Shown here piece by piece: positions 28,215-28,489 of a stretch of DNA of 35,115 bases. Every line of letters begins with the position of its first letter. Positions within the stretch are counted from its first letter, which is position 1. Source of the stretch: Escherichia coli (GTDB lineage Bacteria; Pseudomonadota; Gammaproteobacteria; Enterobacterales; Enterobacteriaceae); assembly GCF_003334765.1 (NCBI RefSeq), contig NZ_QOWT01000038.1. One strand, written 5' to 3'. The notes below the pieces were generated by a model that was not told the origin of the DNA, searched no databases, and saw only the letters and a program-made list of their open reading frames with translations. The translations under genes and the position numbers were made by a program.

Positions 28215-28489
28215 TTACTTCTTCTTATAAATATTTGCCGTGCCGTGGATCTTATTGTCAGTTTGACCGGAGGTCAGTACCAACACATCAGCCCTTTTTC
28301 ATCCGCTTTTTTGATCAAATCTTCTTTTGCATCTGCAGTCGACATTTCATTGCTGGTTGAAATATCACCTATTTTTTCATACTGCGATTCAACTTTTTCA
28401 AATTCCGCTTTGGTCATCAATTCAGCGGCATAGACATTGGTAACGGCTAACGCTAACGCACCGACTAACATTTTAGAGATTATTTTCAT
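28215..28489 (-). pseudogene. yahO: DUF1471 (YdgH/BhsA/McbA-family) periplasmic protein, disrupted by an apparent -1 frameshift
   Basis: The N-terminal frame 28489..28274 encodes [21 protein letters not shown] (signal peptide) ... KKADEKG then LMCWY-stop; the conserved C-terminus [25 protein letters not shown]-stop is readable in the adjacent frame, ending at 28215. Confidence 0.75.

Follow-up and report, generated by a model that had tools for sequence, protein, structure and literature searches.

YahO is a periplasmic DUF1471 protein of unknown function whose gene is σS-regulated and induced at low pH (PMC4092069). Cleavage of its signal peptide after residue 21 has been determined experimentally for the Salmonella and E. 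coli proteins, and the DUF1471 fold runs β1, short helix, β2, long helix, β3, loop, β4, with the strands of the sheet ordered 2-4-3-1 (PMC4092069). The Salmonella YahO structures 2NOC and 2MA4 represent intact orthologues from another genus; they align over the full length (residues 2-91, E = 1.5e-37) and serve here as the fold reference against which a truncation can be judged. E. coli K-12 YahO (b0329, P75694, WP_000691956.1) is a protein of 91 residues encoded between yahN and prpR.

The DNA analysed here (the window) is a stretch of 35,115 nucleotides of E. coli contig NZ_QOWT01000038.1 (assembly GCF_003334765.1). Its yahO locus has the signal peptide, the domain and the yahN-yahO-prpR arrangement of K-12: yahN lies divergently upstream and prpR convergently downstream, and both ORFs flank yahO in the window. 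Near-identical DNA and this conserved synteny identify the gene as the orthologue of K-12 yahO (DUF1471; PF07338). A first-pass annotation, made from the letters of the sequence, had proposed that one missing G near 28290-28294 splits yahO between two reading frames. Alignment with K-12 MG1655 bears this out. The whole former coding region (28215..28489, minus strand) measures 275 nt, against 276 nt in K-12, and the frameshift site (GAAAAAGGGCTG; 28292..28294, minus strand; CCC on the plus strand) is a GGG preceded by five A's, where K-12 has GGGG and encodes 91 amino acids. The difference between A5G3 in the window and A5G4 in K-12 is the only one in the aligned gene and its immediate flanks, and putting one G back into the window sequence joins the halves, as anticipated, into exactly the K-12 protein. 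A 411-bp query around yahO finds matches in ~5,200 of 5,426 complete E. coli genomes, annotated 'DUF1471 family periplasmic protein YahO'; with only the one base setting the locus apart from a named gene so widely distributed, the split-ORF pattern is not a product of chance.

The two frames are those originally described. The 5' ORF (28274..28489, minus strand) has an ATG start and an intact Sec signal peptide (codons 1-21; 28427..28489, minus strand; processing site from PMC4092069), and it encodes a 71-residue product made up of 66 native residues, a novel LMCWY and a TGA stop. In the zero frame the junction reads GAT GAA AAA GGG CTG ATG TGT TGG TAC TGA on the minus strand, the out-of-frame read-through LMCWY-stop extending from CTG to the end (28274..28291). 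Stranded in the -1 frame is the C-terminal remnant (28215..28292, minus strand), 25 codons running to the stop at 28215; it is undecayed, the same as in K-12, and it encodes β-strands 3 and 4.

What this does to the protein can be read from the fold. The PF07338 domain (YdgH/BhsA/McbA-like) occupies residues 37-89 of restored YahO (E = 5.3e-13), and only about its first 30 residues are kept in the 71-residue window product. The frameshift falls directly after the long helix (...KKADEKG|), and gone with the rest of the 91-residue K-12 protein are β3 (DVLVLTS) and β4 (IHGTANIYK), which form the centre of the 2-4-3-1 sheet. Translation starts normally, reads the signal peptide and the rest of the 66 native residues, loses the frame after Gly66 and terminates five codons on. 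Since the signal peptide is intact, a mature fragment of 50 residues (5,706 Da calculated) would be exported; it would consist of β1, the short helix, β2 and the long helix, with no complete sheet. Deprived of β3 and β4, the fragment is presumably unable to fold, and periplasmic degradation is its probable fate, so that the allele would be a functional null; loss of function is thus what the structure leads us to expect of G3. With an indel, a premature stop and an essential part of the domain removed, window yahO is, as read from its DNA, a frameshift pseudogene. The roughly ten DUF1471 paralogues of E. coli could mask any effect of YahO loss.

The distribution of the allele was determined with short queries built so that megablast seeds only across the indel. 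Among 5,426 complete E. coli genomes, exactly 8 (0.15%) have the G3 allele (47-mer) and at least 4,769 have the G4 allele (48-mer); the same indel is thus present in other isolates. The eight carriers come from six countries and independent projects: CFSAN061761 (Egypt, cheese), Y5 (China, urine), H3 (Mexico, faeces), 1000C-3 (USA, hospital wastewater), 1000 (China), HSP425 (Brazil, urine), AF58 (UK, blood) and JX4-T (China, chicken). In all eight RefSeq records yahO is labelled a pseudogene, 'frameshifted', by NCBI PGAP. Strain 1000C-3, a hybrid ONT+Illumina assembly, belongs to ST167 (PMC8868091), and so does Y5 (PMC7193042). Other ST167 genomes from these two papers (M217, AR435 and 51008369SK1) match over 412 bases and hence carry G4; G3 therefore marks a subclade of ST167 and not the whole sequence type.

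Linked markers place the deletion in a line of descent. The codB SNP at 19781 (K122T; G on the plus strand, T in K-12) is found in the window and in all eight G3 carriers, and in a position-by-position variant table it is absent from K-12, YZ_2_2 and FDN-9. This codB allele occurs in 17 of the 5,426 complete genomes, and the eight G3 carriers all lie inside those 17, a nesting whose chance under random placement is ~1.3e-21. Three of the nine other codB-marker genomes (EH09-18-41, SHP24 and IAL7250) have an intact yahO encoding WP_000691956.1, which implies that the deletion arose within the lineage and was then inherited. Two further differences from K-12 are less specific. The yahO-yahN intergenic SNP at 28612 (T in the window, C in K-12) is common to the carriers and to the sister genomes with intact yahO, and is therefore not tied to the frameshift; the nonsynonymous prpE change T320K (21403) is spread more broadly than the codB marker and is shared by YZ_2_2 and FDN-9. 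In no carrier has the rest of yahO decayed further, which dates the event as recent.

We accordingly give a probability of roughly 0.93 to the reading that yahO lost one G (G4 to G3) in a genuine deletion passed on vertically, and so became a pseudogene recently in an ST167 sublineage (phylogroup A, ST10 complex) that includes the window strain. Replication slippage in the short A5G4 tract, occurring once, is the most likely origin of the deletion. One of the readings entertained at the outset, a genuine inactivating mutation in this strain, thus stands with an amendment: the mutation is genuine, but instead of being private to the isolate it is shared across an ST167 subclade and linked to the codB marker.

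The position of the lesion in a homopolymer tract, within a gene for a surface- or stress-related periplasmic protein, would also suit contingency-type phase variation, in which the G-run toggles yahO ON and OFF reversibly and at high frequency. Phase-variable tracts are typically 7 or more residues long, however, and this one has only 4 G's. The OFF state, moreover, looks monophyletic (8 carriers within 17 marker genomes) and is not interspersed among lineages, and no G5 or other length variant appears among the matches listed for the 411-bp yahO query. The likelihood of such a reversible switch is negligible.

A sequencing or assembly error in the homopolymer, leaving the strain really G4 and its yahO intact, deserves fuller treatment, since homopolymer errors at this very spot are known in public data and produce the same 71-residue protein. 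The exact 71-residue product is encoded on at least 434 contigs (NCBI, ENA, JGI, Logan). Comparison of eight of these loci with long flanks (L018-L025) separates them into two classes. Five draft or metagenome loci (L018, L020, L022, L023 and L024) are clean, with 0-1 gap columns relative to the window, and have A5G3 together with all lineage markers. The other three (L019, L021 and L025) are error-rich, with 14-30 gap columns per ~17 kb and many split neighbouring genes; they have A4G4 and no lineage markers, and arrive at the same protein, AAA and AAG being synonymous Lys codons. In error-rich long-read assemblies (e.g., GCA_052953335.1, GCA_046575705.1 and GCA_052953355.1) the 71-residue prediction is that of the window, but the lesion shortens A5 to A4 with G4 kept, the haplotypes are different and many other indels lie nearby. 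The figure of at least 434 contigs was for this reason rejected as an allele frequency: errors of the ΔA type yield an identical protein. It follows that the ΔG allele and the ΔA error are told apart by the DNA lesion and the linked markers, not by protein sequence. Both real ΔG and artefactual ΔA exist in public data, and by lesion and markers the window belongs to the genuine class.

The quality of the window sequence points the same way. Over 35 kb it differs from K-12 (represented by an engineered MG1655 record that has a cassette inserted between lacI and lacZ) by a few SNPs, one copy of a 93-bp repeat and the one yahO G, and no second 1-bp indel occurs anywhere in the window. An artefact would also have to be reconciled with the window's possession of the rare codB marker, which all G3 genomes share, and with carriers that include an Illumina-polished hybrid as well as independently made assemblies from different countries, and errors would not nest within 17 of 5,426 genomes (P ~1e-21). 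Error is thus very unlikely, its exclusion being by inference from the lineage markers and from the lack of other indels, and the lesion is taken to be a real mutation; the assembly-error option of the first-pass annotation is disfavoured on the same grounds. An apparent shortfall of ~10 kb in the window relative to most genomes was also considered and rejected, direct BLAST showing the window to be colinear with K-12; the gap came from the way matching pieces are joined in the search.

The remaining option, that the site is a ribosomal slip site, would keep the gene functional: if the ribosome shifted into the -1 frame at GAA-AAA-GGG, or if slippage occurred there during transcription, full-length YahO would be restored. 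The geometry is permissive, in that a -1 shift anywhere from codon 65 to the stop would rejoin the native C-terminus, and A_AAA_G is a tetranucleotide that allows tRNA-Lys to re-pair in the -1 frame; background-level slippage there, giving a full-length G66R protein, is conceivable. A programmed site is another matter. A_AAA_GGG does not fit the canonical slippery heptamer X_XXY_YYZ. The 86 nt downstream fold like their shuffles (z = -0.46; 61 of 200 shuffles are as stable), and the small hairpin found there is present in intact alleles as well. Transcriptional slippage, to be efficient, would need longer runs than A5 and G3. Finally, the shifted state is confined to one lineage and 0.15% of genomes (8, against at least 4,769 with G4), while the others encode the protein in frame, which is the opposite of what a conserved programmed signal would show. 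Neither a canonical heptamer, nor a stimulatory structure in the 86 nt downstream, nor conservation is thus to be found at the G3 site; the slip-site option goes unsupported, and recoding that would rescue yahO is extremely improbable.

The reading as an inherited deletion leaves a number of features of the window and of its relatives to be recorded. In the prpB-prpC intergenic region (25095-25380) a 93-bp REP/BIME-like unit is repeated in tandem (3.1 copies, 95% match). K-12 and the eight complete carriers have one copy more than the window, and YZ_2_2, FDN-9 and the draft carrier L018 have as many as the window; repeat copy number therefore varies independently of the yahO allele. Copy number distorts similarity rankings. 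YZ_2_2 and FDN-9, which emerged as top relatives from a 25-kb search and have intact yahO, raised the question of whether the window's deletion is private or an error; they lack the codB marker, however, and their high rank is due only to sharing the window's repeat copy number. Three nonsynonymous transversions, at 6443 (mhpA H5P), 12747 (lacY G287A) and 15023 (cynX S18Y), occur in none of the genomes compared, which for 6443 were K-12, YZ_2_2 and FDN-9; these could be genuine to the strain, or they could be wrongly called bases. On the minus strand at 28078-28151, where the 3' ends of yahO and prpR face each other, there is a sub-threshold match to naRNA4 (RF02564; 28.6 bits against a gathering threshold of 59.5, E = 0.006), which is most likely a REP element lying between the two convergent genes. 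Apart from it, an Rfam scan around yahO yielded nothing relevant, and scans for promoter and terminator consensus sequences there returned 0 sites.

Among the contigs that encode the 71-residue product, L020 and L021 (1200-6400) have an extra ~5 kb between yahJ and yahK, with an ASCH-domain gene and a sugar-type ABC transporter, where K-12 and the eight carriers have only a small pseudogene remnant. From codB to about window position 32247, L020 nevertheless keeps to the haplotype of the carriers, which suggests an indel or a recombination boundary near yahK. In L022 (GCA_000351985.1, a clean G3 carrier), Mu-like prophage genes (4600-9400; repressor, transposase-like, Gp45/Gp46 families) adjoin yahN and stand in place of yahK-yahM, and yahJ is apparently truncated (187 residues called). 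The chromosome of CFSAN061761 (L005, 1-9600) has a resistance island with sul2, aph(3'')-Ib, aph(6)-Id, IS26, a mer operon and IS1, which truncates yahE and replaces the bet-yahD region ~10 kb from yahO.

Searches of the literature turned up no paper describing the yahO frameshift itself, and 'yahO' is not mentioned in the ST167 comparative paper PMC6392093. What is added here is modest: the allele is real, most likely of single origin, a marker of an ST167 subclade, and distinguishable from ΔA errors. Its general biological weight is small, that of a recent pseudogene of a small stress-induced protein with many E. coli paralogues; its use is that a single base cleanly marks one sub-branch of the high-risk clone ST167. 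There is a possible consequence for mass-spectrometric typing. YahO provides a MALDI-TOF biomarker peak, reported for the ST131 variant E34A at m/z about 7650-7655 (PMC6561927). The calculated masses of mature YahO are 7,648.5 Da for E34A and ~7,706 Da for the K-12 type; the agreement of the former with the reported ST131 peak implies that G3 carriers should lack the K-12-type peak at ~7,706 Da. A bolder proposition, that loss of YahO in this globally spread, multidrug-resistant ST167 subclade was adaptive or a hitch-hiking marker change and not neutral drift, strikes us as unlikely. Were it true, envelope-stress or biofilm behaviour might be altered, the ~7.7-kDa YahO peak used in MALDI-TOF typing schemes should disappear, and the G3 allele or the absent peak could serve as a rapid marker of the subclade.

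Among the known systems close to the window locus is the set of eight RefSeq yahO pseudogenes. With these it shares the same 411-bp sequence, G3 included, the same codB K122T and prpE alleles, and T at 28612. It is identical to none of the eight genomes, from which 2-3 private nonsynonymous SNPs and one copy of the 93-bp repeat set it apart: the window alone has the SNPs at 12747 and 15023 (the carrier stretches compared do not extend to 6443), and it has one repeat copy fewer between prpB and prpC. The frameshifted yahO of the window is, then, an ordinary lineage-specific pseudogene, already annotated as such in those eight RefSeq genomes.
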